Below are positions 2,954 through 59,389 of a stretch of 59,389 bases of DNA, in pieces (the first letter of the stretch is position 1; each line of letters starts with the position of its first letter). The notes below the pieces were generated by a model. The model was not told the DNA's origin, searched no databases, and was given only the letters and a program-made list of their open reading frames with translations. The translations under genes were made by a program, and so were the position numbers. The stretch is from a virus, in IMG/VR virus record IMGVR_UViG_3300048912_000255, positions 1 to 59,389 of that record; one strand, written 5' to 3'.

Positions 2954-2954
2954 C

Positions 2955-7804: not shown

Positions 7805-9210
7805 TACCGCCTCCTCCCGTTCATTCGTACTCGGCCCTGTCGTGCCCGGCGGGCGTCAGTGCGCTTTTCCATGTGACCCTTGAAGAAACGACCCAGAGCC
7901 TCGGGGCCGTGGTTGTCCTTGTCCATCGGCAGCTCAGAGTCGTTCTTGGAGTCGCTCTTTTTCTCCGGCCAGCGGTAGCCCTCCCTCATCTCCCAGATGA
8001 GCTTGGTGCAACTTCGGTCGATGAAGAGGTCAGGCTGCTTCTCCGGGTGGCCATCAGGCAGATGGGCAGGTCGGAGCTTCAGCGAACTACGGATGAGGCT
8101 CAGTCGAGTCTTGAGCTCACCGCCGGTGTTACCGAAGGTGGGCACATCCAGTGTACGCCGAAGAATGTTCGCGTCGTCGGGAGCTGCCGGGTCGTAGTAG
8201 ATACCCACCAGCTTCGACTTCAGCGGGTGTTCCTTGAACTCGGTCCGAGCGATGTCCTCAGTGTCACGGAGGTTGAACCTCTCCTCACCGATGACGTAGA
8301 CCTTGTTCGTCAGGGGGTCATGCTGAATCCAGAGCCAGACCCAGTCGTTGGTGTAGCCGAAGTCGATCGCTGCGTACAGCGGCAACTTCCGATTGTACTC
8401 CAGGTCGGCGATGTGGTCATCGTCGTCCCATTCTTTCATGACTCGACCGATGTTGTCGACGAACTGAGCCCCATACTGGCGGTCGAACTCGTCTTGGGTC
8501 AAGTCGTCGCGGGCTTCCATGATCTCGGGGTCCTTACGGCCGCCGGGGAAGACCACGTCGTTCGTCCATGAGGGCATCTGGATCGACCACCATGACTTCT
8601 TGGTCGGATCCTGCCCTCGGTTGAACAGGCTGTACAGCAGCGAGGTCTCGGCAGCACCCTCAGGCACGCCGGATGTGAAACTCCAGCCTCGCTTGTCGGA
8701 AAGAGCCGGGCGAACGTAGTCACCCCACATCTTCCGCTTGTGTCGTCCACCTTCCACGATGAGGACGAAGTCAAGTCCTTCACCGACCAGGCTTTCGGGG
8801 TGTCGGGCCGAGCGGCACTGAAGATCGAAACCCCATTTGGTCTGGATGTGCATGTTGCCGGAGTCGACGTTGTTAGAGAAACGCGTCGAAACCTGATCCA
8901 CACCCAACTTGCGGAGCGAGTCGTAGATGACCCGGAACTCCTTCTCGCAGTCCGTGTACTCAGGACCGATGATCCAGCCAATCTGAGGCTGGCCGAGGAA
9001 GTTCTTGACGAAGGCCATGCACTCGGCCTCCTTGGCGCCGCACAGGGTCTTGCCCCAGCGTCGCCCGTTTACCAGCACGCGATGGCGGGCACCCTGATAG
9101 TGCACCACCCTCTGCCCGCCGTGTGGGAGGTAGCCGGTCTCATGGAAGTAGAGATCCTTCCGAAAGACCTTGCCATCCGGGATGTGCAACCCCGATGCCG
9201 TCCGCGCCAT
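7804..9210 (-). CDS. terL: Terminase large subunit
   Basis: Walker A-like VNGRRWGKT, Walker B-like LDFVLIVEGG, nuclease-type motifs AAIDFGY, IYYDPAA, DKDNHGPEAL. Confidence 0.9.
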   Translation of the reverse strand: MARTASGLHIPDGKVFRKDLYFHETGYLPHGGQRVVHYQGARHRVLVNGRRWGKTLCGAKEAECMAFVKNFLGQPQIGWIIGPEYTDCEKEFRVIYDSLRKLGVDQVSTRFSNNVDSGNMHIQTKWGFDLQCRSARHPESLVGEGLDFVLIVEGGRHKRKMWGDYVRPALSDKRGWSFTSGVPEGAAETSLLYSLFNRGQDPTKKSWWSIQMPSWTNDVVFPGGRKDPEIMEARDDLTQDEFDRQYGAQFVDNIGRVMKEWDDDDHIADLEYNRKLPLYAAIDFGYTNDWVWLWIQHDPLTNKVYVIGEERFNLRDTEDIARTEFKEHPLKSKLVGIYYDPAAPDDANILRRTLDVPTFGNTGGELKTRLSLIRSSLKLRPAHLPDGHPEKQPDLFIDRSCTKLIWEMREGYRWPEKKSDSKNDSELPMDKDNHGPEALGRFFKGHMEKRTDARRARQGRVRMNGRRR

Positions 9211-11029: not shown

Positions 11030-11512
11030 CTAATCTGGGATACCAGGACTACCCAGTACAGCGAGGACCTTGAGGTCTCGTGGATCGTAGCAATCCTCAC
11101 TGTAGAACATGGCCACCAGGTGATACCGGCTCAGAGCCCGATTGCGATCCATGGCCGCCGTGAGTCGATTCTGGATCGCTTGAACCGAGTACCCCAGGTT
11201 TCGCCCGATCTGCTGCAGAGTCAAGCCCTTGGCAAGCAGACCCATCATTGCACGGTCGAGTGTGGAGAGGTTCAATGGGCCCCAGAGAGGTACCGGGGGG
11301 ATCAGGTTGTTCTCTAGCGCCCAATAGACCGTGTCCGTGAGCCCCACCGTGCCGGTGTAGGCCCGAATCCTTACCCCCCGGTTCCTCATGGCATTCCAGG
11401 TCACCCCCAGAAGACGAGCAACCTCGGGCCCCTCCACACCCAAGGCATAAAGAAGGAGCATCTGGCGGTCCTGGGGCTTGAGCCCCTCAATCTCACGCGG
11501 AGTGGTCAACAT
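11030..11512 (-). CDS. Transcription regulator with two LuxR/sigma-70 region-4-type HTH units
   Basis: LKPQDRQMLLLYALGVEGPEVARLLGVTWNAMRNR and LSTLDRAMMGLLAKGLTLQQIGRNLGYSVQAIQNRL. Confidence 0.7.
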   Translation of the reverse strand: MLTTPREIEGLKPQDRQMLLLYALGVEGPEVARLLGVTWNAMRNRGVRIRAYTGTVGLTDTVYWALENNLIPPVPLWGPLNLSTLDRAMMGLLAKGLTLQQIGRNLGYSVQAIQNRLTAAMDRNRALSRYHLVAMFYSEDCYDPRDLKVLAVLGSPGIPD

Positions 11513-24539: not shown

Positions 24540-26591
24540 TCAGCGTAGCTTCCAGGCCTTGCCGTCGCGGGTGATGATACCTTGGTTAAGTAGATCCGTG
24601 AGCTTTCTGTAGGTTGGGTGGTATGTAGAGCTGAGTTGGGTGGCGAGGTCGGTAGTCGTGAAGCTACCTCCCTGGGAGAGCAGGTCGAGCAGGGGCTGGG
24701 TGGCTCGTGGCTTTGGTGTGGAGGTTTTGGTACGTGTGGATCGGGCGGTGGGTACGTCGGCCTTGGGGGTTTCTTTGGGCTCGAAGATGGGGGTCCACTG
24801 CTTGTTGTCGAGGCCGCTGATGGTGTAGTGCTCTTCGGGGGCGGACTTCGATTCGAATTCGACCTTGAGCTGACCGGGCCGGCCCCCTCGAGTAATGTAG
24901 AGGCTGTCTTCAGCCCAGGCATGGAGGGCGGTCGAGCCGAGCAGCTTCTGCCCACCCCGTCGGGCATCGTCAGCTCCGCCCTTGCCCATGTGGTGAACGA
25001 AGCGAAGGGCGGCACCATGCTTGCGCATGAGCAGCTTCATCGGCTTGAAGATGCGCGTGGTCAGCTGCTGGGCCTTGTTCTCTTCGACATCGCCGGCAAC
25101 GTTCATCAGAGTGTCGATGATGACGAGGTGGTAGGGTCGGCCATCCATGCCGGCGGCGAGCGTCTCATCGAGCCATTCCTGCCACCCGGGGTCCGAGGCG
25201 ATGAACCCTTCCATGCAGTAGATGTCGATGTCGGGATCGAACTCCTCGGGGTCACCGGGGATCCAGAGAACGTCCTTGCCGCCATTCATGAGGCGCATCT
25301 TATCCACCGTCTTGCCACGCCAGATCTTACGCGACCTGGACTTGACGGTGATGGCCGAGTCCTCTTCCTGGATGTAGAGCACCGGGCCGGGGCGGATCAC
25401 TCGGAAGTAATCGAGGAAGTCAGCCCCGGTCGAGACCGAGAGCGCCAGGTCGAGGGCGAGCCAGGACTTGAAGCTCTTCGGTGCGCCAGCGAGGAACCCA
25501 ACCGAGCCATCAGTGGCGATGCCCTCGACGAGCCAGGTGGGCGGCTTCACGTCCTTGAGAAAGGCCGCGAGTCGTTGGGGCTTGGGCTTGGGGGTCTGTT
25601 CTTCCTCAAGCGCTTCCTGAGTCTCCGGCGAGCGTTGCTCGATGGCCTTCGTCGCTTCGGTGATGAGGCGTTTCATCTCATCGTGACGACCCTCGAACTT
25701 GTTCCACACCGTACCGCGAATGATGGAGACGATCTCCTGCACGGTGCAGCCAGCATCGGCGAGGCATCGAGTCAGGTACCAGAGGTTATCACCTCGAGTA
25801 CCCTGCGGGCCGGCGGCATCACGGGCGCTGAGCAGATCCCGGGCTCGCTGGTTGAGCTTGAGTTTGACCCGAGCGACAACGGCATGGCGGTCGATGCCGT
25901 CGATCTCAGACTCGATGATCTCGCCGAGCTTATCCGCGGTAAGCGCGCCCTTGACCTCCGGCAGAGCCTTGAAGTCATCCATCTCGTACATCGGACCGCG
26001 CTCCCAGAGCAGCTTGCCGATGACGGTGGTCTTGCCGTTCTTGCGGTACTCGGGCTTGTGGTTCGGCCAGCCCGGGATGCGCAGCAGCTGAGTGGTGTCC
26101 CAGCCAGAGCGGTCCGCTTCGAGGTAGTAAGAGAGTCGCTGGTTCTCGTTGCCCGGCCAGCTCGCGCCCTGGAAGTCACCGAGCGAGGGGTTACCCAGCC
26201 AGAGGCCCTGGTATCGACCGGGCGAGGACTCCCAGGCGATCGTGGGCTTGAAGTCTGAGTTGCCCCTCAGCTTCTTGGGATCGGCCTCATCGAGGTCAGC
26301 CCAGAGGGCGTGCTCATCCATGGCCAGTTCGGACTGGCGGTCGGGCCCCTCGAAGATGCTCGGGCACCAGTAAAGGTCATGCTGGGTGTGGGCCTTCATG
26401 TGGGCGAGGATCTTGGACTTATCCTCGGGCCACTTGAATGCTCGGTTTTCGTGGAAGCCAGCGCGTCGCTGACCAGTGCGGATCTGCTCCTCCCGATCGA
26501 TGTGCGGGAAGAACACATACCCGTCCTGACTCCCCCATGCACGCGAGATAATGCTGAGGGCTTTGGCGGGCGTGATGCTCGGTTCGGTCAC
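24540..26591 (-). CDS. Primase-polymerase / RepA-like (AAA_25-type) helicase with a C-terminal wHTH
   Basis: N-terminal prim-pol-like YVFFPHID, ALWADLDEADP, ESSPGRYQGLW; P-loop GFLAGAPKSFKSWLALDLAL; C-terminal LLDLLSQGGSFTTTDLATQL. Confidence 0.85.
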   Translation of the reverse strand: MTEPSITPAKALSIISRAWGSQDGYVFFPHIDREEQIRTGQRRAGFHENRAFKWPEDKSKILAHMKAHTQHDLYWCPSIFEGPDRQSELAMDEHALWADLDEADPKKLRGNSDFKPTIAWESSPGRYQGLWLGNPSLGDFQGASWPGNENQRLSYYLEADRSGWDTTQLLRIPGWPNHKPEYRKNGKTTVIGKLLWERGPMYEMDDFKALPEVKGALTADKLGEIIESEIDGIDRHAVVARVKLKLNQRARDLLSARDAAGPQGTRGDNLWYLTRCLADAGCTVQEIVSIIRGTVWNKFEGRHDEMKRLITEATKAIEQRSPETQEALEEEQTPKPKPQRLAAFLKDVKPPTWLVEGIATDGSVGFLAGAPKSFKSWLALDLALSVSTGADFLDYFRVIRPGPVLYIQEEDSAITVKSRSRKIWRGKTVDKMRLMNGGKDVLWIPGDPEEFDPDIDIYCMEGFIASDPGWQEWLDETLAAGMDGRPYHLVIIDTLMNVAGDVEENKAQQLTTRIFKPMKLLMRKHGAALRFVHHMGKGGADDARRGGQKLLGSTALHAWAEDSLYITRGGRPGQLKVEFESKSAPEEHYTISGLDNKQWTPIFEPKETPKADVPTARSTRTKTSTPKPRATQPLLDLLSQGGSFTTTDLATQLSSTYHPTYRKLTDLLNQGIITRDGKAWKLR

Positions 26592-30626: not shown

Positions 30627-30944
30627 TTACCCGAAGGCGGCGGCCGGCGGAGTAGCCGTGGCCTCGCGAAGGTTCACCGAGTACCAGTCGTCGGCCAGCA
30701 GGTCGGTCTGGGAAGCGACCCACGGCACGAACTCGCCCTGGGCGGTGTACATCATGAGGTAGGGGCGGAACTTCATCACCGTGCCCTGAGGGAGGCCGGT
30801 GGAGTTCGCCGTGTTCTCGTTGATCGGGATCCCCTCGGGGTAGCCCGGCTGGAGGACGATGTACATCCCCGCACCGTTCCAACCCGCGCGGGTGAGTCGG
30901 TCGCCAAGCTGGAGCTTGGTCAGGGCAAGCCCGAAGTCGAACAT
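30627..30944 (-). CDS. DUF2829-like protein (family of the Thoeris anti-defence protein Tad2)
   Basis: MFDFGLALTKLQLGDRLTRAGWNGAGMYIVLQPG ... PWVASQTDLLADDWYSV matches the remembered DUF2829 pattern (F..A...L..G..v.R..W.g.g..i ... W..sq.DlLA.DW). Confidence 0.7.
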   Translation of the reverse strand: MFDFGLALTKLQLGDRLTRAGWNGAGMYIVLQPGYPEGIPINENTANSTGLPQGTVMKFRPYLMMYTAQGEFVPWVASQTDLLADDWYSVNLREATATPPAAAFG

Positions 30945-34538: not shown

Positions 34539-34820
34539 CTACGCGGAATGCGCCATCTCATTATGGCGCAGGGCCTGAGATGTGTGGTGCCAGAAAGGAC
34601 AGAACTCGCATTTGTAGCTACGCTTGAGGTCAGTTTCCTGACGACGGATGTTTCTCAGGATGTCATTCAGGGCAAGGTCGGCCTGGATACGGTCGATGAA
34701 GTTGTACTTGCCCGTTCGGGCGCACTTCGCCGGCATACGCTTAACGTGGCCGTCGACAATGCGAAGCCGGGTACGAGCAGATCGGTGTGGCTTGGACATG
34801 GTTCCTCCTCTCATGCCCAA
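34539..34820 (-). CDS. Hypothetical basic protein (93 aa)
   Basis: ORF track. Confidence 0.45.
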   Translation of the reverse strand: MGMRGGTMSKPHRSARTRLRIVDGHVKRMPAKCARTGKYNFIDRIQADLALNDILRNIRRQETDLKRSYKCEFCPFWHHTSQALRHNEMAHSA

Positions 34821-34848
34821 TCATACCAATACCCGTACCCGGCGTCAA

Positions 34849-37410
34849 TCATACGGAGAGATCTTCGTATGTGGGGTGATTCACTTCAAGCCAGCTGAGA
34901 AGTGCGTCCCGATCGTAGATGATCTCGGGCTGATCGACTTCGTGGGCATCGCCCCAGTACTGCCCAATCTTGAGGTCGGCCACGATCGGGATGTCGAGTA
35001 CCGTACCGAACTTCTTGCGAAGCGGGTTCGGGTCCTCCATGGTGTCCTTGATGATAGGCAGCGCGCGGTGGAGGTGGTCGTTACGGACTTCGAAGTTGAT
35101 GGCGTCGTGGACAAGGCCCAGGCAGTTCGCCTGGATATCCAGTTCGCGGAACTTCTCGTTGATCAGGCACATGGAGAGCAGGGCCATGTCGGAGGCGAAG
35201 CCCTGCACCGGCGAGTTGATCGCCTGCCTCTCTGCTTCGGCCTGGACCCCCTTCTCGGGCGAGTAGATGTCGGGCAGGTGGCGCACTCGCCCGAGGGGTG
35301 ACTGCACTCGCCCATGGTTGCGCACGAGACGTCGCTGACGCTGGTGCCAGGGCTCGAGATCCGGGAAGAGGTCGAAGTAGGCCTTCCGGTAACCCTGGGC
35401 TTCGATCTCGGTGAAGGTCGAGCCGTAGTTGTTAAACGCGGTCTCGATGAACTTGCGCCAGCCCATGCCGTAGAGGAAACCGAAGTTGACCGGCTTGCCG
35501 ACCTTCTTGCGGATCTCCTTGGTGATCTGATTCGCCGGCAGACCCGTGACCGCCATCGCGGTGGTCAGGTGGATGTCCGCGCCCTCCTGGTAAAGCTGAA
35601 TCATGTGGCGCTCGCGGGCGATGAACGCGGCGATCCTCAGCTCGATCTGGGAGTAGTCGGCCTCGACGAAGGTCCAACCAGGTGGTGCACCGAACATGCC
35701 CCTGATGAGGGAGTCACGAGGCACCTGCTGGAGGTTCACCCCGCGCAGGTCGGTGCGTCCCGAGACCTTCTCGGCATCGGCCTTGCCCGAGCTAAGTCGC
35801 CCGGTCACGGTACCGGCCAGCTTGAAGGTGGTGTGGATGCGGTGGTTCTCATCGTACATCTTCTCGTAGGCATTGAAGAACGACGAGAGATTTTTCTGCC
35901 ACCCCACACGGGCGAGCATCAGGTCGATAGCCGGGTGGTGATGGTCCTGCTGGAGGTGAAGGAGGACATCCTCGGCCATGCTCGGGTCACCTGGCGAGCC
36001 GTCGTCCTTCTCCTTGCCTCGTGCCAGCACGGGCAGCTCGAGCCACTCGAAGAGGAACCACTTGGCGAAGAGACTCGCGTTGTAGTTGATCTCGAGGGGC
36101 TTGTTCGTCTTGTGGTGACGGGGCCAGTCCTCGGAGTCGGGGTCGGGGAGGAACTCGCTGAGTTGATCCTCGATCTCCTTGAGCTTGGCCTCGGCGATCG
36201 GCTTGCGTTCCTGCAAGCGGTTCACATCGAGCCAGATGCCCCGTCGTTCGATGTGAACGAGTTCACGGCTTGCCGGCATCAAGAGCTTGGTAAGAATCCG
36301 GGCGAGACGAGGCTGCTCCCTGAGCTCGGCCTTCATCTGATCGCCGATCTGGTATGTACGGTAGGTGTCCTCGAAGTTATACTTGAGAACCTCTTCCAGG
36401 GGGTCGTTGAGCAGGTTCTTGGTGTCGATACCCCAGGGCGCTACCCCCAGCCGAGCCATGGCGTTGGGCTTGAGGGCCTTTGCCACGTTCTCATTGAGGA
36501 GGTGCTGGGCCAGCATGGTGTCGAACGTCTGGAACATGTCCACACCGAAGTGGGTCATCCACCGAGAGTCGAACTTGCCGTTCTGAGCCTCCTGCTTGGG
36601 GATGGCTTCCAGCACATCCTTGAGGTACAGCAGCACCGACTTCCACTTCCGCTGCCAGGGCGACTCGGGGTGGTACAGGCCGATGGCGAAGCCCCAGAGC
36701 TTCTTCTTGCCATTGATCTCGGCGATGCAGGTGCCGGCGAGCGAGATGACCTTGGCTCGAGGGTCGAATTCCCCAAGCGGATTGATCGTGGTCTCGATGT
36801 CGAAGCTGATGTACTGAGTCATGCTCAGCAACTTCTTCAGCTTCTTGAGCCCGGCCATGTCCTCAGGCACGAGGTACTTGGGCAGCCGATCATCCGAAGT
36901 GCGGCCCATGAAGTCGTTGGCGAAGAGGCGCACATCGGCGAGAAAGCCCGGGCGCTGGCCTGGGTTGCGCGAGACGGCGTGAGGGGAGACGGTGGGAATC
37001 ACCTTGTAGGCGCCCTTGTCGATCACCCGCCCGCGATACTTCGTGATACCCGAGTGGCCCGTGGAGGCAAGCAGCCCCTCATTACCGAGTGCCAGGATGT
37101 GACTCGGCTTCACGACGGCGATCTCTCGATCGAGGTGCTGCCGGCAGGCCTTGACGTCGGAGTTACTGGCGTTGGCCTCGAAGTTGCGGCACTTCAGCGC
37201 CGAGGTGTAGTAGACCTTCTTCGGGTCGAGCCCGACGTCGGTCAAGTACTCCTCGAGCTGGTTCTGGTACTTGGTCGAATTCGGCATCTTGCCGATGACC
37301 ATGATGTCGGCATTGCCCGGGCCGGAGCCCATCTCGCAGACATCTTCGGCACCCTTGTACAACTTGCACGAGGTGCAGTCACGGTCAGGGAGAAGGTTCG
37401 GTCCAGGCAT
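34849..37410 (-). CDS. polA: Family A DNA polymerase with 3'-5' exonuclease and an N-terminal family-4 UDG-like domain
   Basis: Exo I FDIETT. Pol motifs DYSQIELRIAAF, RKKVGKPVNFGFLYG, LVHDAINFE. N-terminal CTSCKLY...VIGKMPN...ALKCR...ACRQHL...SPHAVSRNPG. Confidence 0.92.
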   Translation of the reverse strand: MPGPNLLPDRDCTSCKLYKGAEDVCEMGSGPGNADIMVIGKMPNSTKYQNQLEEYLTDVGLDPKKVYYTSALKCRNFEANASNSDVKACRQHLDREIAVVKPSHILALGNEGLLASTGHSGITKYRGRVIDKGAYKVIPTVSPHAVSRNPGQRPGFLADVRLFANDFMGRTSDDRLPKYLVPEDMAGLKKLKKLLSMTQYISFDIETTINPLGEFDPRAKVISLAGTCIAEINGKKKLWGFAIGLYHPESPWQRKWKSVLLYLKDVLEAIPKQEAQNGKFDSRWMTHFGVDMFQTFDTMLAQHLLNENVAKALKPNAMARLGVAPWGIDTKNLLNDPLEEVLKYNFEDTYRTYQIGDQMKAELREQPRLARILTKLLMPASRELVHIERRGIWLDVNRLQERKPIAEAKLKEIEDQLSEFLPDPDSEDWPRHHKTNKPLEINYNASLFAKWFLFEWLELPVLARGKEKDDGSPGDPSMAEDVLLHLQQDHHHPAIDLMLARVGWQKNLSSFFNAYEKMYDENHRIHTTFKLAGTVTGRLSSGKADAEKVSGRTDLRGVNLQQVPRDSLIRGMFGAPPGWTFVEADYSQIELRIAAFIARERHMIQLYQEGADIHLTTAMAVTGLPANQITKEIRKKVGKPVNFGFLYGMGWRKFIETAFNNYGSTFTEIEAQGYRKAYFDLFPDLEPWHQRQRRLVRNHGRVQSPLGRVRHLPDIYSPEKGVQAEAERQAINSPVQGFASDMALLSMCLINEKFRELDIQANCLGLVHDAINFEVRNDHLHRALPIIKDTMEDPNPLRKKFGTVLDIPIVADLKIGQYWGDAHEVDQPEIIYDRDALLSWLEVNHPTYEDLSV

Positions 37411-37609
37411 CCGTCACCTCCTCGGGGAGCTTGTCGAGCCGAGGCTTGGCCCAGGCGAGGATCAGCAACTCGATGGTGTTGAGCGCGTTCTCGACGGCCT
37501 TGGGAGAACCCTTACGGTCGTTGCGGAGGTTCCGGGTGTAAACGAAAAGGGGTCGCCTCAGTAGCTCGATGAGCTGCCGAAGTCCCTGGTGACGATCAAC
37601 CATAGACAT
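37385..37609 (-). CDS. Hypothetical protein (74 aa)
   Basis: ORF track; overlaps both neighbours. Confidence 0.4.
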   Translation of the reverse strand: MSMVDRHQGLRQLIELLRRPLFVYTRNLRNDRKGSPKAVENALNTIELLILAWAKPRLDKLPEEVTDAWTEPSP

Positions 37610-38087
37610 ATTTTACCACCTCCAGACCAGCCTGCTGAAGGAGGCGGAGCCCGCTCTCTTCTCGGTGATCCTCGTAGTAAACCACCCGCTTGATGCCCGC
37701 GTTGAGGATCATACCGGCGCAGTTGAGGCAGGGCATCCTCGTGGTGTGGAGCTCCGCCCCGTCGACTCCCACACCATACTTGGCTGCGTGAATGATGGCG
37801 TTGGCCTCGGCGTGAATGGCTCGGGTGCAGGGGAGGGGAAAGGGGCAACCATTGATGTGCCTGAGCCCCTGCATACGGTCTTGTCGAGGCCAACCCTTCG
37901 GGCAGATACAGCCATGGTCGCAATGAGGCATGCCGGCTGGGGCTCCGTTGTATCCGCTCGACAGTATCCTCCCCTCTCGGCTGATCACGGCGCCGACCTG
38001 GGCCCGGCTGCACGTAGACCGTGCACGCCAGTTGTCGGCACTCTGCATGAGGACCCAGTCACGGGGCGGCCTTTTGAGCTCGTTCAC
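37596..38087 (-). CDS. dCMP deaminase
   Basis: Zinc motifs HAEANAI and PCLNCAGMI; GTG start. Confidence 0.85.
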   Translation of the reverse strand: MNELKRPPRDWVLMQSADNWRARSTCSRAQVGAVISREGRILSSGYNGAPAGMPHCDHGCICPKGWPRQDRMQGLRHINGCPFPLPCTRAIHAEANAIIHAAKYGVGVDGAELHTTRMPCLNCAGMILNAGIKRVVYYEDHREESGLRLLQQAGLEVVKYVYG

Positions 38088-38233
38088 GTCAGTTCCTCCT
38101 CGAGAAGCTCGATGGCCTTCTGCATGCCATCATGGGTCTGGTAGCTGTCGTCGTTCGCTTGGAGCTTAGCGATGAGCTTCTTGATCAGCTCGTTGTTGCG
38201 TTCGTTGGCCTCTTCGAGGTCAAGCTTGTTCAT
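38084..38233 (-). CDS. Small coiled-coil protein (49 aa)
   Basis: Own translation MNKLDLEEANERNNELIKKLIAKLQANDDSYQTHDGMQKAIELLEEELT; ATGA and GTGA overlaps with the neighbouring genes. Confidence 0.35.
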   Translation of the reverse strand: MNKLDLEEANERNNELIKKLIAKLQANDDSYQTHDGMQKAIELLEEELT

Positions 38234-39123
38234 CCCAGTGCCTCACGGAGTCGTACGGACCGCTGAACGTGGTCCTGTCGGCGAAGGTGCTCGACCATGG
38301 CTCGGTCGCCCTCGAAAATGTGGAAGGAGGAGATGTGCATGGTCAGCTCCCCCATCTCGACGGCGATCGGCAGCTCGTCCCGAACCCACTGCCCGAGTCG
38401 GATGGCCATGTAAACATCGTCCCGGAAATGCCGCATGAAGTCGCAGGCTCGGATGTTGTATGTGACGTGGAGCTTACCGTCGCGCACCATGAATAGGTAC
38501 CCCAGCGTACAGGGTACTCGCTCGCCATCGGGTGCCCCGGTATCCTCGGGGAACCAGATCGGCAGGTAAGCCTGCCTGGTCATGGGGTTCTTGGTGAGCC
38601 GGTTGATCACGTCGTCGAGGTCGCCGTATTCGAACCGAATGCCCTGTCGACCCGAGCAGACCTGACGGTAGCCATCATGGCCGTGTCGATCTACTGCCGT
38701 CGGTTGACCCATCTCGTCGAGCATGGTCATGTGGTGGCAGTCGCCGGCATGCTTCGGCCAGAACCGCTCAGGGTAGGTGTGGGAGAACTTCCCGCCCTTG
38801 AGGTGGTCGAGGTGGCCCGCCTGTATGAACGGCCACCACTCGTTGGAAGGCGGCGGGTTGTGAGGCCAACCGCTAACTCGCTCTTGGAAGTGGTCCTCAG
38901 CCCAGGGCAGGTTCGGCGAGATCGTCGATTGCGCCCCTTCAATCGTCTCGGGCATCCCGATGACCAGTGAGCTCTCCCTGAGCTCCCAGGTGACCTTTGA
39001 GCGATCGCCCTTGATGTCGAGGCCCTGCCAGCTGCCGACATCAACGGGCCGGGCGGCCTCTGAGAAGTCCTCGAGAAGCCGCCCGACCATGTCGGCGAAG
39101 GTCATACCTTGATAGACCCTCAC
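38230..39123 (-). CDS. Thymidylate-synthase-fold pyrimidine C5-transferase, closest to the dCMP hydroxymethylase (T4 gp42) pattern
   Basis: TRQAYLPIW, then PCTLGYLFMVRDGKLHVTYNIRACDFMRHFRDD aligns without gaps to the remembered gp42 segment MCTNTVQYLIRDKKINAVVNMRSNDVVFGFRND. Confidence 0.7.
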   Translation of the reverse strand: MRVYQGMTFADMVGRLLEDFSEAARPVDVGSWQGLDIKGDRSKVTWELRESSLVIGMPETIEGAQSTISPNLPWAEDHFQERVSGWPHNPPPSNEWWPFIQAGHLDHLKGGKFSHTYPERFWPKHAGDCHHMTMLDEMGQPTAVDRHGHDGYRQVCSGRQGIRFEYGDLDDVINRLTKNPMTRQAYLPIWFPEDTGAPDGERVPCTLGYLFMVRDGKLHVTYNIRACDFMRHFRDDVYMAIRLGQWVRDELPIAVEMGELTMHISSFHIFEGDRAMVEHLRRQDHVQRSVRLREALG

Positions 39124-39132
39124 GTTGTACTC

Positions 39133-39363
39133 CTACGCGCCGGGGATGCAGAAGATGCAGGTGCAGTCGAGCGGGTGGTACTCGGGATCCGAGGAGTCGT
39201 AGTCGAAGCCCTGCTTGACCTCCTCCTCGGTCAGCGGGCGGCGCTCCTCGCATCGGTGGATGCAGGGCTGGTCGCTACCCGTCGGCCAGGGGGCCGTCGT
39301 TGAGGCATCCGGATCGATTGCCTCCCTGCGCTCCTGGCAGGTGAGCTGCCTCAGCTCAACCAT
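39133..39363 (-). CDS. Hypothetical Cys-containing protein (76 aa)
   Basis: ORF track; ATG at 39363 (GTG at 39369). Confidence 0.4.
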   Translation of the reverse strand: MVELRQLTCQERREAIDPDASTTAPWPTGSDQPCIHRCEERRPLTEEEVKQGFDYDSSDPEYHPLDCTCIFCIPGA

Positions 39364-39493
39364 TTCCACACCCGCAGGGCTCGTCGCCGACCTTGATGCA
39401 GTGGAGCGGGGTGCGGCAGTTCTCGTTGAGCTTGGGCGGCTCGGGGTCGGTGAGCGGGAACTGCTCCACGTAGCCCTCGTTCTCGGGTTCCAT
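39356..39493 (-). CDS. Small hypothetical protein (45 aa from MEPENEGY)
   Basis: TGATG overlap with the upstream stop at 39493. Confidence 0.3.
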   Translation of the reverse strand: MEPENEGYVEQFPLTDPEPPKLNENCRTPLHCIKVGDEPCGCGNG

Positions 39494-39705
39494 CAGACCT
39501 CCTCGTCGGGGCCGTTCACGCAGGCCCTTTGCTTCATGGTAGGACATCCCCCGATGCACTTGCCGTCGGACGAGAAGGGGCAGAATACCCCAGTCTCGTC
39601 GATGGGGTGGTTTCGGCGGTAGGCAGCACGGCGGACCTTGATCTTGGCCCAGACCTTGGCGGCCTCGGCGAGCCGACTCGGGTCGGGCGGGATGTAGTTA
39701 CTCAC
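39493..39705 (-). CDS. Hypothetical Cys-containing protein (70 aa)
   Basis: ORF track. Confidence 0.4.
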   Translation of the reverse strand: MSNYIPPDPSRLAEAAKVWAKIKVRRAAYRRNHPIDETGVFCPFSSDGKCIGGCPTMKQRACVNGPDEEV

Positions 39706-40183
39706 CCTCGACGACCTCGATGCGGAGCTTGACCTTGTCGCCCTCGCCCATCTCCTGGTACATCAGCTCCCACATCTCCTCACGGTCGATGGCGATCATC
39801 TCGTCCACCGTGGGGCTGTCGCCGAAGCCACCCTTCCTGTAGAGCTCGGGCTTCGGCTCGTACTCGTAGGTGGCGACGATGCGGAACTTCAGCGGTCGGT
39901 CGGCGGTCGGCTTCCGCATGTTCTCGATCGGCCCGACCCCATAGAGGCTGGTGAAGGTGTGGGAGTCGAGTCCGGCCCCTCCCGCCCAGTCGTTCTCGGG
40001 GTGACGGTTGTCGCGGACGGAGAACAGGATGTTGGGCGCCACCGCCTCGTCCTCGTTCACCTGGATCTCGTCGATCCTGGCGTAGATGTTGACCTGCTCC
40101 GAGTGTCGGTAGATCTGTCCGACCTTGAGCTGAGCCATGCGGTTGTATCGGCCCATCTCCCGCTTGAACTCATCCTCACCCAT
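39698..40183 (-). CDS. Hypothetical protein (161 aa)
   Basis: ORF track; balanced composition. Confidence 0.55.
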   Translation of the reverse strand: MGEDEFKREMGRYNRMAQLKVGQIYRHSEQVNIYARIDEIQVNEDEAVAPNILFSVRDNRHPENDWAGGAGLDSHTFTSLYGVGPIENMRKPTADRPLKFRIVATYEYEPKPELYRKGGFGDSPTVDEMIAIDREEMWELMYQEMGEGDKVKLRIEVVEGE

Positions 40184-40223
40184 GATTGTCTCCAGTTCTG
40201 TTGGGTGGTTGATCGGGGCCTAC

Positions 40224-41261
40224 TTACTCATCATCGCCATCCTCGTCGTCCTCGTCAAGGCCGGGAACGTAGTCGCCCCCGTACTGCTGCCCGAAGGGCA
40301 TCTTCAGCACCCTGAAGTCCAGGTTCTCGATGGGGGTGCTCGGCAGAGGGTTGTAGGCCTTGAAGAAGTCCTTCTGCTCTCCGGCCTTCTCCCCCTTCTG
40401 GTAGTAGCTCCAACCCTCGAACCGCTTGGCGTGCTCGAACCCGAAGACCTCGGTATGCCAGCGCCGGCGGATGCGACGGTAGGTGTTGTAGGTCATGTCG
40501 CCGTAGGTCAGGCCCTGGGCGTCCTCCTTGCGGACCTTCATCAGCCACTGTCGGGTCATCTTGAGCGCCGGCGTGTTCTGGATCTCGTTGAACTCGTCGT
40601 CGGTCAGCTTGGTCGCGCCGGCGGTCAGCAGTCGACGGTACTTCTTCCGAGCCCAAGGATCCGGGTTGCAGAGCATCCAGGCCATGGACTTGAAGTTGTG
40701 CCACTGGATCGCCTCGTTCGTCCACACGAAGGCGATATCCTTGACGTCGATGCCGAGCTCGTGTGCGAGGTACTTGCCGGCCATCCAGGCGACCGAGAGG
40801 TCCAAGGCACCGATGTAGCCCAGGTAGCTGGTGCGGGAGTGCAGGTGGATCGTCGGCCGGGGCAGAGCCTTGTAGCTGAGGGAGATCATGCAGGAGCCCC
40901 AGCGTCGAGTCTCCTTGTTGCTGTGCCCGGTCGCGGCACCCCCTCGGGGCTTCACGATCTTGGTCCGCATCAGCGCGATGCCCCGACCCTTCACCCCGAT
41001 CTTGCTCGTGCACTGGTCCAGCCAGGCCTGGAGAGCATCGGCGTCGAGGTACTGGTTGACCATCATCGACCACCGCTGAGGGGTGAGCCACAGCGTCTTG
41101 AGGTCGAACTCCCAGTCCATCGAGTCGGCCACGCCGATGACGTCGTGGATCTGAACATCCACGTTGGAGATAACGTCGAGCTCCTCAGCGGGGGCCTCGA
41201 CCAGCGAGAGGATCATCTTGGTGTGGAGGTCCGTCATGGTGGCGGCCTGATACGTGCGCAT
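40224..41261 (-). CDS. Highly divergent thymidylate-synthase-fold paralogue with a C-terminal extension and acidic tail
   Basis: MRTYQ start (paralogue starts MRVYQ). TRRWGSCMISLSY...HLHSRTSYLGYIGALDLSVAWM...DIAFVWTNEAIQWHNF parallels ThyA PCH...[18 protein letters not shown]...DFVWTGGDTHLYSNH. Confidence 0.55.
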   Translation of the reverse strand: MRTYQAATMTDLHTKMILSLVEAPAEELDVISNVDVQIHDVIGVADSMDWEFDLKTLWLTPQRWSMMVNQYLDADALQAWLDQCTSKIGVKGRGIALMRTKIVKPRGGAATGHSNKETRRWGSCMISLSYKALPRPTIHLHSRTSYLGYIGALDLSVAWMAGKYLAHELGIDVKDIAFVWTNEAIQWHNFKSMAWMLCNPDPWARKKYRRLLTAGATKLTDDEFNEIQNTPALKMTRQWLMKVRKEDAQGLTYGDMTYNTYRRIRRRWHTEVFGFEHAKRFEGWSYYQKGEKAGEQKDFFKAYNPLPSTPIENLDFRVLKMPFGQQYGGDYVPGLDEDDEDGDDE

Positions 41262-41264
41262 GGT

Positions 41265-41411
41265 TCACCAGATCTTGTAGAAGATGTGAAGGGTGCCGAC
41301 TATGAGGATCGTGGTGAGGGCGGCACTGAGAACCAGTACCGCCGCCGCCATGATGTCCCATACTGCGCCGGCGACTTCCCGAATCCGCTGGAGACGGGTG
41401 CCGGTGTTCAT
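41265..41411 (-). CDS. Small membrane protein (48 aa)
   Basis: Own translation MNTGTRLQRIREVAGAVWDIMAAAVLVLSAALTTILIVGTLHIFYKIW; AGGAG lies 4 nt before the ATG. Confidence 0.35.
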   Translation of the reverse strand: MNTGTRLQRIREVAGAVWDIMAAAVLVLSAALTTILIVGTLHIFYKIW

Positions 41412-41418
41412 GTAGCTC

Positions 41419-41898
41419 CTAGTAGCCGTTGCCCTGGCGCACCTGGTTCTTCTGGTGCATGCGGAAGTAGGACTCGTAGAGGTCGATGGGGGAGATGCCG
41501 GCCGTGATGCAGAACTCGAAGAAGAAGTGGGCCACGTCGCCGACCTCGTCCACGAAGGCCTTGACGTCGGTCGGGCGCTCGGTCTGCTTCCACGGCTTGT
41601 TCTTGAGCTCCTGCATGGCCTCGCTCACCTCGCGAACGAGGTAGCCGTACAGGTCGTGCAGCCGCTGCTGAACCCTGCGGGAGTCGAGGTCCCCGAGCTC
41701 GTCGGGCTCCAGCACGGTCGCGCCGTTGGCGAGCTCGATGTCGTGGTACTTGTGCATGAGCTCGCGCTGACCGGCGAACATCAGCTCCATCAGGTCACCT
41801 TCCATGTAGGGGAAGGTGCTGATCTGCCGCTCATACCGAGAGGCGGGGACCCCGGTGGTCGAGAGGGCCGGGGACTGATGCTGTGCGGGGACGGTCAT
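41419..41898 (-). CDS. Dimeric all-alpha dUTPase_2-type dNTP pyrophosphatase
   Basis: MELMFAGQRELM...REVSEAMQELKNKPWK...DEVGDVAHFFFEF...YFRMHQKNQVRQGNGY. Alternative start at 41805. Confidence 0.7.
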   Translation of the reverse strand: MTVPAQHQSPALSTTGVPASRYERQISTFPYMEGDLMELMFAGQRELMHKYHDIELANGATVLEPDELGDLDSRRVQQRLHDLYGYLVREVSEAMQELKNKPWKQTERPTDVKAFVDEVGDVAHFFFEFCITAGISPIDLYESYFRMHQKNQVRQGNGY

Positions 41899-42436
41899 AG
41901 GTAAAGCCCTCGTTTCGCTTGTCGAGCTCGCGCTGGAGCCAGCGGAGCATGTCGTCGTACAGGGTGGTCTGGTAGTTGAACAGCCGAGCGTTGCGCTGGC
42001 TGACGTCGATCGCCGCCCGAGCCACATAGCCCGCGTAGATCGCGCCGATCCGGCTCTTTACCGCGGCGTTGTCGGTGTCCTCGCGGTTCACATTCGCCCG
42101 GACCGTCTGGATCGGCGGCAGGCAGTAGATGATGATCGGGTCGCAGGCGTAGAACCTGGCGGTCATCTCCATCATCCATCCAGGGTCACAGAACCGAAGG
42201 TCCTGCCTCGACCGGGTCGCCGGCCCGTAGATGGGCTCCGAGATCAGACGATGGCGATCGAAGATCCGACGCTGGAAGCCGCAGCTGACGTTGTCTTCGG
42301 TCCACTGGGCCAGGTCGGTCATCGGGGTCATGTCGGAACTCACCACCTTGTCGGCGATGGGGATCCCGAGCTCCCTCGAGAGGCGAACGGCAAGCGAGGT
42401 CTTACCCGCGCCATCCGGCCCTTCGAAAATGATCAT
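41831..42436 (-). CDS. Thymidylate-kinase-like dNMP kinase
   Basis: MIIFEGPDGAGKTS P-loop at the in-frame ATG 42436. Confidence 0.75.
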   Translation of the reverse strand: MIIFEGPDGAGKTSLAVRLSRELGIPIADKVVSSDMTPMTDLAQWTEDNVSCGFQRRIFDRHRLISEPIYGPATRSRQDLRFCDPGWMMEMTARFYACDPIIIYCLPPIQTVRANVNREDTDNAAVKSRIGAIYAGYVARAAIDVSQRNARLFNYQTTLYDDMLRWLQRELDKRNEGFTYDRPRTASVPGPLDHRGPRLSV

Positions 42437-42603
42437 GGTGCATCCTCGCTGAAGACAACCGCGTCGATGAGCAGAACGTCTTCTTGGATCTTGTCGGGTG
42501 TGGGAACCGGGCAGACCAGGGGAACCCGGTCCATTGCCCTCAAGCGGGTGCATTTCTCAAGTGCCGCCCTCGTTGCCTTGTCCCCCTTGGTAACGAGTCG
42601 CAT
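42433..42603 (-). CDS. Small hypothetical protein (56 aa), first gene of the nucleotide operon
   Basis: AAGGAGG lies 6 nt before the ATG. Own translation MRLVTKGDKATRAALEKCTRLRAMDRVPLVCPVPTPDKIQEDVLLIDAVVFSEDAP; ATGA overlap with the kinase start. Confidence 0.45.
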   Translation of the reverse strand: MRLVTKGDKATRAALEKCTRLRAMDRVPLVCPVPTPDKIQEDVLLIDAVVFSEDAP

Positions 42604-42635
42604 AGCATCCTCCTTGGTCGAGGGCGGTAATAGAA

Positions 42636-42664
42636 ATACTACCCAATCCGGATCTTCGAGTCAA
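42636..42664 (-). promoter_or_regulatory. Promoter TTGACT-17-TAGTAT heading the nucleotide-metabolism operon
   Basis: Verified by codon arithmetic on ORF 42557..42769; the -35 box lies 17 nt after the helicase stop. Confidence 0.6.
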
Positions 42665-42680
42665 TCGACTCGGCACCCTA

Positions 42681-44171
42681 TCATTCTCGCAGGAGAAGCC
42701 GCTCAGGGGATGCCATGATTGCCTGGGCGACTTCCCCGTCTCCCTGCAGTGTTTCGTAGAGCAACTCATCCACCGTACCGTGCGCGATCAAGTACATGAA
42801 GATGGTGCTACGCTTTGACAGGGCGATCCGATCCTCGAACTGCGTGAAGCTAACGTAGCTCGGGGTCATGGAGAACCAGATGCAGATCGATGCCGAGCTA
42901 AGGTCGATACCCTCGGCGGCAGCCTGGGGCTGAGCGATGAAGCATGAGGGCCCGGGCCGCTCACGGAAGAGTCGGATGCTCTCGTCGCGATCTCGGCGCT
43001 TCACCCCGCCCCTTACGACATATGCGGGTACCTTGAGCTCCTCGCACATCCGTGCGATCGCTGCGATATCGCCAACGAATTGGGCACCCACGACCACCTT
43101 CTCATCCGCCTCAAAGAGGTCGGAGAGGAGATCTTTCATGACCTCGAGCTTTTCGTATCCCACACGAACGAGGCGGCCCTCGGGATACTGCTCGGTGGGC
43201 TCAGTTTTGGCGATGCCCGAGGTGATCTGACGAAGCCGAAGCGTCTGTACCAGGGCGATGGATGCCACCGTGATCTCGCCGGTCTGGATGCGAGCCACCA
43301 TCTCCTTCGCCATCTGCTCATAGTACGGGGCAGACTCGTGGAGCTTCACCGGGATTATCTGCTCTCGCCGAGGCGGCAGGTCGTAGCATTCCTCGCGACT
43401 GATGGCGAAGGCATCCTGATGGATCTGAGCGTGTAGATCATCCTCATTGATGTTCCTCAGCCACTGGGGGAAGCCGTTCCGAGTCGTCCACTGTCCATAG
43501 GTTTCCTTGAACGTGGTGAACGTCATGTTGAAGCGACTGGGGTTGAGAAACTTCCACTGAGAGTAGACGTCGAAGATCCGCTTCTTCTTCGTCACCACGG
43601 TACCGGTCATGATGACCCGGTACTCCGCCACCTTGCCCAGCTTGTGTAGCATCCTCGACTTAACCGCGGACGAAGACTTGATGCGGTGGGATTCGTCCAG
43701 GGCGATCAGGTTCGGCTGCCACCGAGCCAACGCCTTGAAAATGTCGAACCTGCCACCCCTTCGCTTGGATCGCAGCTTGTTGCCGTACTCGTCACTCTTG
43801 ATCACCGCCCCCGGTGTGGAGAGGGCATCGTAGTTGATGATCACGAAGTCCAGGGTGTCCTTGGCCGAATACTTCGGCAACTCGGCTCCCTGCTTACGCG
43901 ACTCCTTATCCCATGTTACGATACGGTAGGCGTGGGGGCAGTGCTGAGCGATCTGAGCCTCCCACACCCCGATGACGCCGAGGGGGCAGAAGATGAGGAC
44001 TCGCTTGATCTTGCCCGCCGAGTAGAGCGCGCCGGCATAGTCGATCAGGGTCTTGGTCTTGCCCGTGCGGGGAGCCATCAGGAGAGCTCCGCCGAACCCC
44101 GTCGACAACAGCTTCTTGATGGCCATGACCTGGTACCGGTAAGGCGTGGTCTTGAACTTGTACTTCGCCAT
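42681..44171 (-). CDS. SNF2-family helicase
   Basis: Motif I LLMAPRTGKTKT, motif II LDESHRIKS, and a C-terminal helicase domain. Start taken at MAKYKFK. Confidence 0.85.
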   Translation of the reverse strand: MAKYKFKTTPYRYQVMAIKKLLSTGFGGALLMAPRTGKTKTLIDYAGALYSAGKIKRVLIFCPLGVIGVWEAQIAQHCPHAYRIVTWDKESRKQGAELPKYSAKDTLDFVIINYDALSTPGAVIKSDEYGNKLRSKRRGGRFDIFKALARWQPNLIALDESHRIKSSSAVKSRMLHKLGKVAEYRVIMTGTVVTKKKRIFDVYSQWKFLNPSRFNMTFTTFKETYGQWTTRNGFPQWLRNINEDDLHAQIHQDAFAISREECYDLPPRREQIIPVKLHESAPYYEQMAKEMVARIQTGEITVASIALVQTLRLRQITSGIAKTEPTEQYPEGRLVRVGYEKLEVMKDLLSDLFEADEKVVVGAQFVGDIAAIARMCEELKVPAYVVRGGVKRRDRDESIRLFRERPGPSCFIAQPQAAAEGIDLSSASICIWFSMTPSYVSFTQFEDRIALSKRSTIFMYLIAHGTVDELLYETLQGDGEVAQAIMASPERLLLRE

Positions 44172-59025: not shown

Positions 59026-59340
59026 CTATTTGAACATCGAGGCCGGATCGGCAAATTGACCTCGACTGGGCTTCTCAGTATTGCCGAGGTATCGATCCAG
59101 TACTCGACTTCGCTTCTGCTCGGTCTCGTCTCGGTTCTTGCCCTCGACCTTATCCAGCTCTGCTTCAACCGTACGACCGAAGTAGCCAACCGCCTGATCC
59201 AGGCAGTAAGCTGCGTAGTCATCGGTTATCCGCAGCAAGTCACTCGGACGGCAGTTCCACGTCTTCGCGTCCACGTACAACATCCAGACTGCTGGCGTGT
59301 TCGCGACGAAACTGCTCCACGTCCGTGGTACCTCCAGTGA
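59026..59340 (-). CDS. T-frame extension of the tail assembly chaperone (expressed as a G-T fusion by a programmed frameshift)
   Basis: This frame is open from 59340 (equivalent to position 78) to the stop at 59026. It overlaps the end of the G frame for ~98 nt and lies +1 relative to G. Ends 10 nt before the tape measure ATG. Confidence 0.6.
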   Translation of the reverse strand, partial: SLEVPRTWSSFVANTPAVWMLYVDAKTWNCRPSDLLRITDDYAAYCLDQAVGYFGRTVEAELDKVEGKNRDETEQKRSRVLDRYLGNTEKPSRGQFADPASMFK

Positions 59341-59389
59341 TCACCTGGAAGAGGAACATCTTGTCCTCGTCGTCGACCTCGTCGGCGTA
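59240..59389 (-). CDS. 3' end of the gpG-like chaperone ORF (continuation of 1..478 across the junction)
   Basis: Frame continuity across the 127-bp overlap; reads ...SLDVVRGREDVELPSE then TGA at 59242..59240. Confidence 0.75.
   Translation of the reverse strand, partial: YADEVDDEDKMFLFQVITGGTTDVEQFRREHASSLDVVRGREDVELPSE
59263..59389. repeat. Terminal overlap, identical to 1-127
   Basis: Direct comparison. Confidence 0.95.

Follow-up and report, generated by a model that had tools for sequence, protein, structure and literature searches.

A replication-linked phage gene block with two thymidylate-synthase-fold proteins and a possible role in the supply of modified cytosine

The IMG/VR virus record IMGVR_UViG_3300048912_000255 (59,389 nt, positions 1 to 59,389; the window in the following) carries on its minus strand a compact block of nucleotide-metabolism genes (34849-42664), which lies between an SNF2-family helicase gene and the end of a DNA polymerase I gene. 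It encodes a kinase, a pyrophosphatase, a dCMP deaminase and two proteins of the thymidylate synthase (TS) fold, designated TS-A and ORF-B. The first 127 nt of the window (1-127) are repeated exactly at 59263-59389; hence, the assembly is circular and the genome complete (~59.26 kb), and genes missing from the window are missing from the whole genome. The GC content is ~62% and many metagenomic relatives have a size of 57-61 kb. Since one relative of TS-A is filed within a Streptomyces genome assembly (58.7-kb contig), the host is probably an actinomycete.

Layout and enzymes of the gene block

The gene coordinates are those of public gene calls for the identical contig, mapped onto the window. 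In the order of transcription, the following features were found (ORF, open reading frame; all on the minus strand):

42681-44171, minus: SNF2-family helicase, directly upstream of the block and its neighbour in 36 of 37 related loci
42636-42664, minus: sigma-70-like promoter TTGACT-17-TAGTAT, which begins 16 nt past the stop codon TGA of SNF2 (42683..42681); 9 of 12 consensus positions
42433-42603, minus: 56-aa leader ORF with the ribosome binding site AAGGAGG; its stop codon forms an ATGA overlap with the start of the kinase; unconserved in relatives
41831-42436, minus: P-loop deoxynucleoside monophosphate (dNMP) kinase resembling thymidylate kinase (TMK), 201 aa, with EGPDGAGKT and a DRH motif
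41419-41790, minus: all-alpha nucleoside triphosphate (NTP) pyrophosphatase, 123 aa, Pfam dUTPase_2 (PF08761)
41265-41411, minus: 48-aa ORF, unconserved
40224-41261, minus: ORF-B, 345 aa, second TS-fold protein (AlphaFold2 model and Foldseek), phrog_13667
39133-40183, minus: four strain-specific genes (161, 70, 45 and 76 aa) between ORF-B and TS-A
38230-39123, minus: TS-A, 297-aa TS homologue with a cytosine-type active site (PF00303, residue alignment)
38084-38233, minus: 49-aa ORF, translationally coupled on both sides, unconserved
37596-38087, minus: zinc dCMP deaminase, 163 aa, PF00383, with HAEANAI and PCLNCAGMI
37385-37609, minus: 74-aa ORF, which overlaps with the end of the deaminase gene and the beginning of PolA, unconserved
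34849-37410, minus: DNA polymerase I (PolA), 853 aa, with an N-terminal domain resembling uracil-DNA glycosylase (UDG); PF03167, PF01612 and PF00476

The initial annotation, made from the letters alone, had described a promoter-driven, translationally coupled operon with a T4-like toolkit for pyrimidine substitution. Its promoter was found in the sequence at 42664..42636, only the distance to the SNF2 stop had to be corrected from 17 to 16 nt. A scan of 12 kb gave 6 such sites compared to 1.9 +/- 1.3 in shuffles, and the minus-strand sites at 45738, 44248, 42664 and 34848 are located at the heads of gene blocks. PolA is the last gene of the block, and the next promoter-like site is at 34848..34820. 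All four stop/start overlaps that had been listed were read in the sequence, namely ATGA at 42436/42433 (56-aa ORF/kinase) and 38233/38230 (TS-A/49-aa ORF), GTGA at 38087/38084 (49-aa ORF/deaminase) and TGATG at 39493 (70-aa/45-aa ORFs). Further overlapping pairs are 161/70, 45/76, deaminase/74 and 74/PolA, and the intergenic gaps from 42603 to 34849 are all ≤ 40 nt.

The five enzyme types and the UDG-like domain of PolA named in the initial annotation were reproduced as domain calls by profile searches. Above their cut-offs scored dUTPase_2 (PF08761, 30.5 bits, cut-off 22.9), Thymidylat_synt (PF00303, 31.0 bits, cut-off 24.3) and the deaminase profile (PF00383, 76.3 bits against 25, 2e-21). 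For the kinase, the TMK-like character was supported by the P-loop and the DRH motif, both of TMK type, and by a match to phrog_761 ‘thymidylate kinase’ (1.8e-12); Pfam Thymidylate_kin gave no hit and TIGR00041 scored 14.8 against a cut-off of 83.3. The best solved match of the family profile was SPbeta YorR (3e-4), which was the sole extended one, whereas TMKs matched at the P-loop only. Judged by sequence, the protein is a TMK-like dNMP kinase.

The pyrophosphatase belongs, according to its profile match, to the same Pfam family as the T4 dCTPase/dUTPase gp56, which itself scores 25.4 on the same model. In addition, it matched phrog_12184 (5e-30) and, by BLASTP in a small database, gp56 (1.7e-4); its C-terminal K-N-x-x-R-Q-x-N-G-Y motif aligns with the dUTPase of C. 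jejuni. The deaminase, with HAE and PCxxC zinc motifs, classifies as a standard zinc dCMP deaminase. PolA combines UDG, exonuclease and polymerase domains. Family-4 UDGs carry the motifs GE(A/G)PG and HP(S/A). In the N-terminus of PolA (36900-37410, minus), the UDG-like domain reads GKMPN and SPHAV instead, with four Cys kept, and probably does not excise uracil.

ThyA, ThyX, dihydrofolate reductase (DHFR) and beta-glucosyltransferase were found nowhere in the complete genome using tblastn and a ThyX motif search. Pfam scans of 20 further ORFs of the window, which were located by mapping genes with the GC content of third codon positions, gave no ThyA, ThyX, DHFR, glycosyltransferase or DNA methyltransferase. 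Thus, the absence of an ordinary ThyA or ThyX and of a recognisable glycosyltransferase, both noted initially, stands.

The two thymidylate-synthase-fold proteins

TS-A was aligned with the retrieved sequences of T4 gp42 and of the XP12 TS homologue and with E. coli ThyA, whose sequence passed a numbering check. Positions are given in E. coli numbering unless assigned to another protein. The match to PF00303 spans only residues 166-286 of TS-A, i.e. the C-terminal core, in agreement with the precomputed Pfam annotation. All ThyA equivalog models of NCBIfam scored far under their cut-offs (best TIGR03283, 49.9 vs 174.6), and the PRK01827 models gave ≤ 22.6 bits against a cut-off of ~327.

TS-A retains the equivalents of W80, Y94, R126, C146, R166, D169 and H207. 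Its Cys205 (38509-38511), Thr206, Arg225, Asp228 and Asp236 (38416-38418) correspond to C146, H147, R166, D169 and N177, respectively, and C205, R225, R183, Y166 and H268 (= Cys146, Arg166, Arg126’, Tyr94 and His207) are invariant or nearly so. Asp236 aligns with E. coli N177, T4 D179 and an Asp in XP12. The alignment of TS-A, T4, XP12 and E. coli is gap-free from the R166/D169 motif to position 177, so the assignment of this Asp is secure. Around the nucleophile, the gp42 stretch that the initial annotation had quoted proved to be exact (gap-free, 11 of 33 residues identical, C148 and D179 confirmed). Its claim of an Asp at the uracil-specifying Asn position was confirmed as well: the Asp is invariant in 32 TS-A homologues and present in TS-A of the phages Zuko, Shrew, Serbin, Muddy (gp46), Strzyga and Clostridium C2, and profile and structure hits favour cytosine enzymes over ThyA.

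The substitution N177D makes TS act on dCMP, and the cytosine-using enzymes MilA, BcmA and the T4 hydroxymethylase carry Asp; uracil-using TS and the SPO1 dUMP hydroxymethylase carry Asn at position 177 (PMC5175136). In E. coli and L. casei TS, N177D yields a dCMP methylase, and positions 177 and 147 are the best discriminators between TS homologues of cytosine-modified and unmodified metagenomic contigs (PMC8670742). At position 147, TS-A has Thr, as does T4 gp42. Searching solved structures with the TS-A family profile gave the CMP hydroxymethylase (CH) MilA (3e-9) and the dCMP hydroxylase AfhB (1e-6), followed by the dCMP-methylating N229D mutant of L. casei TS (3e-5) and T4 dCMP hydroxymethylase (dCH; 4e-5); all wild-type ThyA chains ranked below these four. 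For the predicted structure of TS-A (predicted local distance difference test, pLDDT, 79.8), the top Foldseek hits were AfhB (7e-11, template modelling (TM) score 0.74) and MilA.

Other positions set TS-A apart from characterised enzymes. Its Arg202, invariant in the homologues, is found at the position of E. coli L143 and gp42 Asp145, Gln stands at the R127 position and Phe at the Y209 position. Hydroxymethylases are marked by an acidic residue at position 143 (Asp145 in T4, where it activates water, and Asp in MilA; PMC13326640, PMC6400193), and the signature of 5-hydroxycytosine (5hoC) formation is D169N (PMC13326640). By these residues, TS-A is a distinct TS subfamily with an unusual active site, and the T4 gp42 type is excluded. 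With Arg at position 143 and Asn at the E58 position (see below), the product of TS-A, be it 5-hydroxymethylcytosine (5hmC), 5-methylcytosine (5mC) or something new at C5, is unreadable from its residues; narrowing it to 5hmC or 5mC, as done initially, went too far. A slight and weakly founded lean towards a hydrated product such as 5-hydroxymethyl-dCMP over 5-methyl-dCMP comes from the water-excluding positions Leu143 (now Arg) and Trp83, which are polar, and from the lack of an encoded DHFR. Residues ~125-160 of TS-A (38644-38751, minus) form a Cys/His-rich insert, which differs widely in sequence among the homologues and ranges from absent to ~45 residues; it was modelled with low confidence and may be a metal site or a mere loop.

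The ORF-B protein is recorded on a 59,389-bp JGI contig and on a nearly identical one from a public sequencing run. It belongs to phrog_13667, labelled ‘unknown function’. Pfam, NCBIfam and PDB sequence searches with the single sequence or a profile gave no match for ORF-B, and hhalign of ORF-B against TS-A was insignificant. An AlphaFold2 model built from 37 homologues reached a pLDDT of 87.7 and a predicted TM score of 0.86. Its top 50 Foldseek hits in the PDB were exclusively members of the TS superfamily, headed by AfhB (5e-8) and followed by MilA, T4 dCH and ThyA; the TM scores were modest (0.35-0.54). Among the viral structures of BFVD, uncharacterised phage proteins were hit first (one of them from Pseudomonas phage PMBT14), followed by TS and dCH. 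Thus, the TS fold of ORF-B is detectable through the predicted structure only. Together with the PF00303 match of TS-A, this substantiates the two TS-fold proteins that had been claimed.

An exhaustive profile search with ORF-B retrieved 222 clusters at 50% identity. An alignment of 41 divergent family members, with identities as low as 15%, shows Tyr71, Gly122, Cys124 and Arg143 without variation and Asp154 in ≥ 90%. Cys124 (40890-40892), Arg143 (40833-40835) and Asp154 (40800-40802) correspond to the positions of TS C146, R166 and N177. The predicted secondary structure runs from the Cys over a strand and a further strand with the Arg to a helix with the Asp, and the spacing of 11 from Arg143 to Asp154 equals that from R166 to N177. 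At the D169 position, Tyr146 is found here, Tyr or Phe in the actinophage members, and Glu in Serbin, Strzyga and C2. According to the model, ORF-B is a second TS-fold protein which retains the nucleophile, the phosphate-binding Arg and a cytosine-type Asp and is devoid of the folate-binding Asp169. It would represent a previously unrecognised branch of the TS superfamily, for which there is no Pfam model; nothing else in the locus is as novel. In the conserved module, ORF-B is always encoded immediately upstream of TS-A, and stop and start of the two genes overlap or abut in Zuko, Strzyga, Serbin and Muddy, which fits co-translation of partners. TS enzymes are obligate dimers.

Distribution and known counterparts

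The order helicase, kinase, NTP pyrophosphatase, ORF-B, TS-A, deaminase and PolA is found in Streptomyces phage Zuko, Curtobacterium phage Shrew, Mycobacterium phage Muddy (gp50-gp44) and Serratia phage Serbin (gp54-gp48). In Muddy, gp47 is the member of the ORF-B family, gp46 has an Asp177-type site, and gp45 (7667-8209 in the examined Muddy stretch), annotated as ‘hypothetical’, is a dCMP deaminase homologue with 40% identity, HAEANAV and PCYTCA. Brevundimonas phage Strzyga and Clostridium phage C2 encode kinase, NTP pyrophosphatase, an ORF-B-like protein, TS-A and PolA; a dCMP deaminase is missing, and in Strzyga a PRA-PH-type all-alpha protein replaces dUTPase_2 in the pyrophosphatase slot. 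Thus, the deaminase of the proposed toolkit is well identified, but dispensable. Cultured phages with the module infect Actinobacteria, Proteobacteria and Clostridium, and overall the module was seen in phages of four host phyla. A tblastn search with ORF-B hit 85 phage records, all with actinobacterial hosts; at the DNA level, a search of the whole block against the phage collection found nothing.

Using ORF-B, 37 related IMG/VR loci were retrieved, in all of which the gene order is constant. Kinase and TS-A are each present in 36 of 37, the exception for TS-A ending at a contig edge, and deaminase and PolA are found in all 33 loci which extend that far. The pyrophosphatase, a short and divergent protein, exceeded the threshold in 21/37. 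The small ORFs and the 161-aa protein were detected in 0-1 of the 37 loci. For the genes at 39133-40183, no family hits were obtained, they are absent from 36 of the 37 loci as well as from Zuko, Shrew, Muddy and Serbin, and they are preceded by a promoter-like TTGACG-17-GATGAT (40258..40230, minus). By sequence, they look like a strain-specific, moron-like inserted cassette outside the conserved module. Being strain-specific, they are no candidates for a conserved decoration step, a role that had been considered for them.

T4 makes its modified cytosine with the dCMP hydroxymethylase gp42, the dCTPase/dUTPase gp56, the dNMP kinase gp1 and the dCMP deaminase cd. The window encodes the same four activities; TS-A shares the Cys, Thr147 and Asp177 of gp42, the pyrophosphatase is of the gp56 family, and the dCMP deaminase is accessory. 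However, TS-A has Asn at gp42 Glu60, Arg at Asp145, Gln at Arg124 and Phe at Tyr218, and its profile similarity to gp42 is only 4e-5. Furthermore, the kinase is TMK-like, there is no glucosyltransferase, a second TS-fold protein is added, and the genes form one operon beside PolA, whereas those of T4 are scattered. The term ‘T4-like’ therefore holds for the pathway logic; it fails for the TS-A family and for the Glu60 and Asp145 signatures of gp42.

The DNA of Xanthomonas phage XP12 is fully substituted with 5mC (PMC7653180). Its cluster (MT664984) contains a TS homologue with Asp177, a dCMP deaminase and DHFR. XP12 resembles the phage examined here as a GC-rich siphophage with an Asp177 TS homologue next to a dCMP deaminase. 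In contrast to TS-A, the XP12 enzyme retains E58, R127 and Y209, and its position 143 is occupied by Asn; tblastn aligned the two with only 25% identity over 138 aa. XP12 has no ORF-B, and it encodes DHFR, for which the host enzyme could substitute in the case of the window genome.

Of 37 restriction enzymes, 35 fail to cut the DNA of Stenotrophomonas phage AXL3; the sites of the two that do cut consist of A/T alone (PMC7504290). In its cluster gp27-gp31, AXL3 encodes an all-alpha NTP pyrophosphatase and a TS homologue with D177, together with homologues of the kinase (8e-16) and the deaminase (9e-22) of the window. Differences are an Asp at position 143 of the TS, i.e. the hydroxymethylase signature, a pyrophosphatase of the PRA-PH type, and the presence of a methyltransferase and ThyX. 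Furthermore, none of seven examined proteins of the cluster (gp27-32, gp34) belonged to the ORF-B family. In AXL3 gp29 (2233-3216 in the examined AXL3 stretch), the N-terminal half is homologous to the window kinase and is followed by a C-terminal extension of ~150 aa with IVGEDFGE.

The 5-hydroxy-dCMP synthases RB69 gp48, DLP3 gp80 and HY126 AfhB, which are flavin-dependent TS homologues, use dCMP and have Asp177, and AfhB is the best structural match to TS-A as well as to ORF-B. Their diagnostic D169N (PMC13326640), however, is absent from both proteins, and arabinosyl or glycosyl transferases are missing. MilA, which together with BcmA represents the CMP hydroxymethylases of nucleoside-antibiotic pathways, comes closest to TS-A in sequence among the solved structures. 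Like TS-A, it has an Asp at the cytosine-specifying position and an Ala at the S167 position. It differs by a Lys where TS-A keeps Arg126, by its Glu68 and the Asp at position 143, and by its context, an antibiotic cluster instead of a replication module. XP12, AXL3 and, with respect to its relatives (see below), Serbin are analogues and lie outside the direct evidence for this phage or close relatives.

Readings of the pathway

We consider it somewhat probable that the block is a nucleotide-pool pathway, which provides the phage polymerase with a C5-modified deoxycytidine nucleotide instead of dCTP. First, the gp56-family pyrophosphatase would, by family membership, convert dCTP (and dUTP) to the monophosphate, thereby removing the canonical triphosphate and feeding the next step. 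TS-A would then hold dCMP via Asp236, Cys205 would attack C6 and a one-carbon unit would be transferred to C5; the residues are in place, the chemistry is presumed. Third, and speculatively, ORF-B might form a heterodimer with TS-A or further process its product via the same Cys-C6 chemistry. The TMK-like kinase would produce the diphosphate and a host NDP kinase the triphosphate, which phage PolA would incorporate. The dCMP deaminase would be accessory, as in T4 and XP12, channelling some dCMP to dUMP for dTMP synthesis by the host. Virion DNA with restriction-resistant cytosines would be the expected result; the substitution in virion DNA itself is inferred. Hence, the pyrimidine replacement at the pool level that was initially suggested became the best-supported reading with regard to the Asp177-type TS-A and the gp56-family pyrophosphatase, while the step into DNA is presumed.

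This proposal is favoured by the cytosine-type pocket of TS-A and its solved relatives, the conserved residues of ORF-B, the constant module order, the precedents T4, XP12 and AXL3, the complete genome, which lacks ThyA, ThyX and DHFR, and by observations made elsewhere. In the MetaGPA study, cytosine-modified contigs that carry TS domains also carry domains of dCMP deaminases and all-alpha NTP pyrophosphatases (PMC8670742). Serbin is kin to the 9g-type phages, which modify guanine to deazaguanine, and lacks their modification cluster (PMC6509536); it carries the TS-A/ORF-B module.

Several points weigh against it. No published report of modified bases or restriction resistance was found for any carrier phage, and dozens of phages with the module, including Muddy, are routinely handled. 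Many actinomycetes restrict 5mC- or 5hmC-containing DNA, so such a base would be costly. Deaminase, dUTPase, TS and TMK are also the textbook route to dTMP, which is the annotators’ reading. Within TS-A, the invariant Asn71 aligns with E. coli E58 and gp42 Glu60 (N-L-P-W vs E-L-x-W). The E58 equivalent is said to be kept in all TS, CH and dCH enzymes (PMC6400193). Glu76, Asp77 or Glu81 of TS-A might stand in for it. The N-terminal half of TS-A aligns weakly and is modelled poorly (pLDDT ~50 for residues 88-165). Given these departures from characterised members, the chemistry of TS-A may not be one-carbon transfer at all. Finally, Ala226 at the S167 position recalls the ribose-tolerant MilA; the Arg126 equivalent, which is of the deoxy type, is kept and invariant among the TS-A homologues. 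Palindrome avoidance in the window is weak and uninformative about restriction exposure. Among palindromes, CTAG is strongly under-represented (34 observed vs 84 expected), other 4- and 6-base palindromes are little avoided.

It is conceivable, if rather unlikely, that TS-A and ORF-B constitute a two-enzyme or heterodimeric system, the product of which is a C5-substituted cytosine nucleotide other than 5mC, 5hmC and 5hoC. ORF-B might then re-open 5-hydroxymethyl-dCMP to an exocyclic methylene intermediate, which is trapped by a different nucleophile. In this case, an undescribed base would be present in the DNA of Muddy, GTE2-type Gordonia phages, Zuko, Serbin and this phage.

The main rival to cytosine modification is ordinary thymidylate supply, which we regard as doubtful. 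Here, deaminase and dUTPase would deliver dUMP, TS-A would convert it to dTMP and the kinase to dTDP, in order to raise the dTTP supply of a phage replicating in a GC-rich host; its DNA would be canonical and ORF-B an unrelated accessory. The four activities do form the complete classical pathway, and the genes are annotated accordingly in the GenBank entries of Zuko, Shrew, Muddy and Serbin (PMC6509536). TS-A keeps W80, Y94, R126, C146, R166, D169 and H207, the P-loop and DRH motif of the kinase are of TMK type, and modification was never reported for phages with the module. On the other hand, an invariant Asp stands in place of the Asn that specifies uracil, a change that yields a dCMP methylase in ThyA (PMC8670742), the ThyA equivalog scores of TS-A are far below threshold, and wild-type ThyA structures rank under cytosine-specific enzymes. 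Moreover, the module persists without deaminase in Strzyga and Clostridium C2, and the universally linked, catalytically intact ORF-B would be left unexplained.

A cytosine route to modified U or T appears very unlikely. TS-A would form 5-methyl- or 5-hydroxymethyl-dCMP and the deaminase would convert it to dTMP or 5-hydroxymethyl-dUMP, which would open a dUMP-free path to T or lead to an SPO1-like replacement of T. In its favour, dCMP deaminases accept 5-substituted dCMP; TS-A and deaminase are adjacent, coupled via the 49-aa ORF and linked in most relatives, the kinase is TMK-like, and PolA has a UDG-like domain, as in SPO1, whose DNA contains 5-hydroxymethyluracil. The absence of the deaminase from Strzyga and Clostridium C2, however, places this enzyme outside the conserved core, and T4 and XP12, which likewise combine a dCMP deaminase with a TS homologue for cytosine modification, use the deaminase otherwise.

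Similarly, we have strong doubts that the pool is manipulated without wholesale substitution, be it that the dNTP pool is reshaped or protected, for instance against host defences which deplete dCTP, or that a modified nucleotide is produced in small amounts or as an inhibitor, with essentially canonical virion DNA. MilA, the closest solved relative, serves a secondary metabolite and not DNA, the Ala of TS-A at the S167 position is what lets MilA take ribonucleotides, and modified DNA is unreported for the carriers. Yet the module always lies between the replicative helicase and PolA, with its dNMP kinase and NTP pyrophosphatase it covers both activities that are required for driving a modified dNTP into DNA, and the deoxy-type R126 of TS-A is invariant.

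Three further candidates were rejected: thymidine hypermodification of the ViI/M6 type, since the TS genes of Kuttervirus match only weakly (28-30%, C-terminal core), Asp is present instead of Asn, and neither an aGPT-Pplase nor a 5-hydroxymethyldeoxyuridine DNA kinase was hit; deoxyuridine-containing DNA of the PBS1 type, which needs no TS homologue and involves dCTP deaminases and dTMP/dTTP hydrolases of other families (PMC12697855); and 5-hydroxycytosine formation by TS-A, whose Asp228 lacks the D169N signature.

The locus is of value for its second, previously unrecognised TS-fold enzyme, for how widely the module is spread over host phyla and for its presence in cultured and clinical phages. 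If cytosine modification were true, a large and much-used set of cultured phages would carry an overlooked non-canonical cytosine, including the clinically and therapeutically used phage Muddy and dozens of SEA-PHAGES phages of Gordonia, Streptomyces and Microbacterium. This would bear on host range and the evasion of restriction and CRISPR systems, as well as on nanopore base-calling, quality control of therapeutic lots and phage engineering. ORF-B would be a new branch of the TS superfamily and TS-A a subfamily with an unusual active site. The prediction is quickly testable, as carrier phages, hosts and a liquid chromatography-mass spectrometry assay exist.

Elsewhere in the window, three minus-strand genes were noted. 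Downstream of the replication block, a 105-aa gene (30627-30944) gave a Tad2-like Pfam hit (PF11195, anti-Thoeris Tad2 family) and is a possible anti-defence gene. The 160-aa protein encoded at 11030-11512 had two sigma-70 region-4/helix-turn-helix hits and is likely a transcription regulator. A 683-aa protein with RepB-primase and AAA_25 domains (24540-26591) is likely a primase-helicase.

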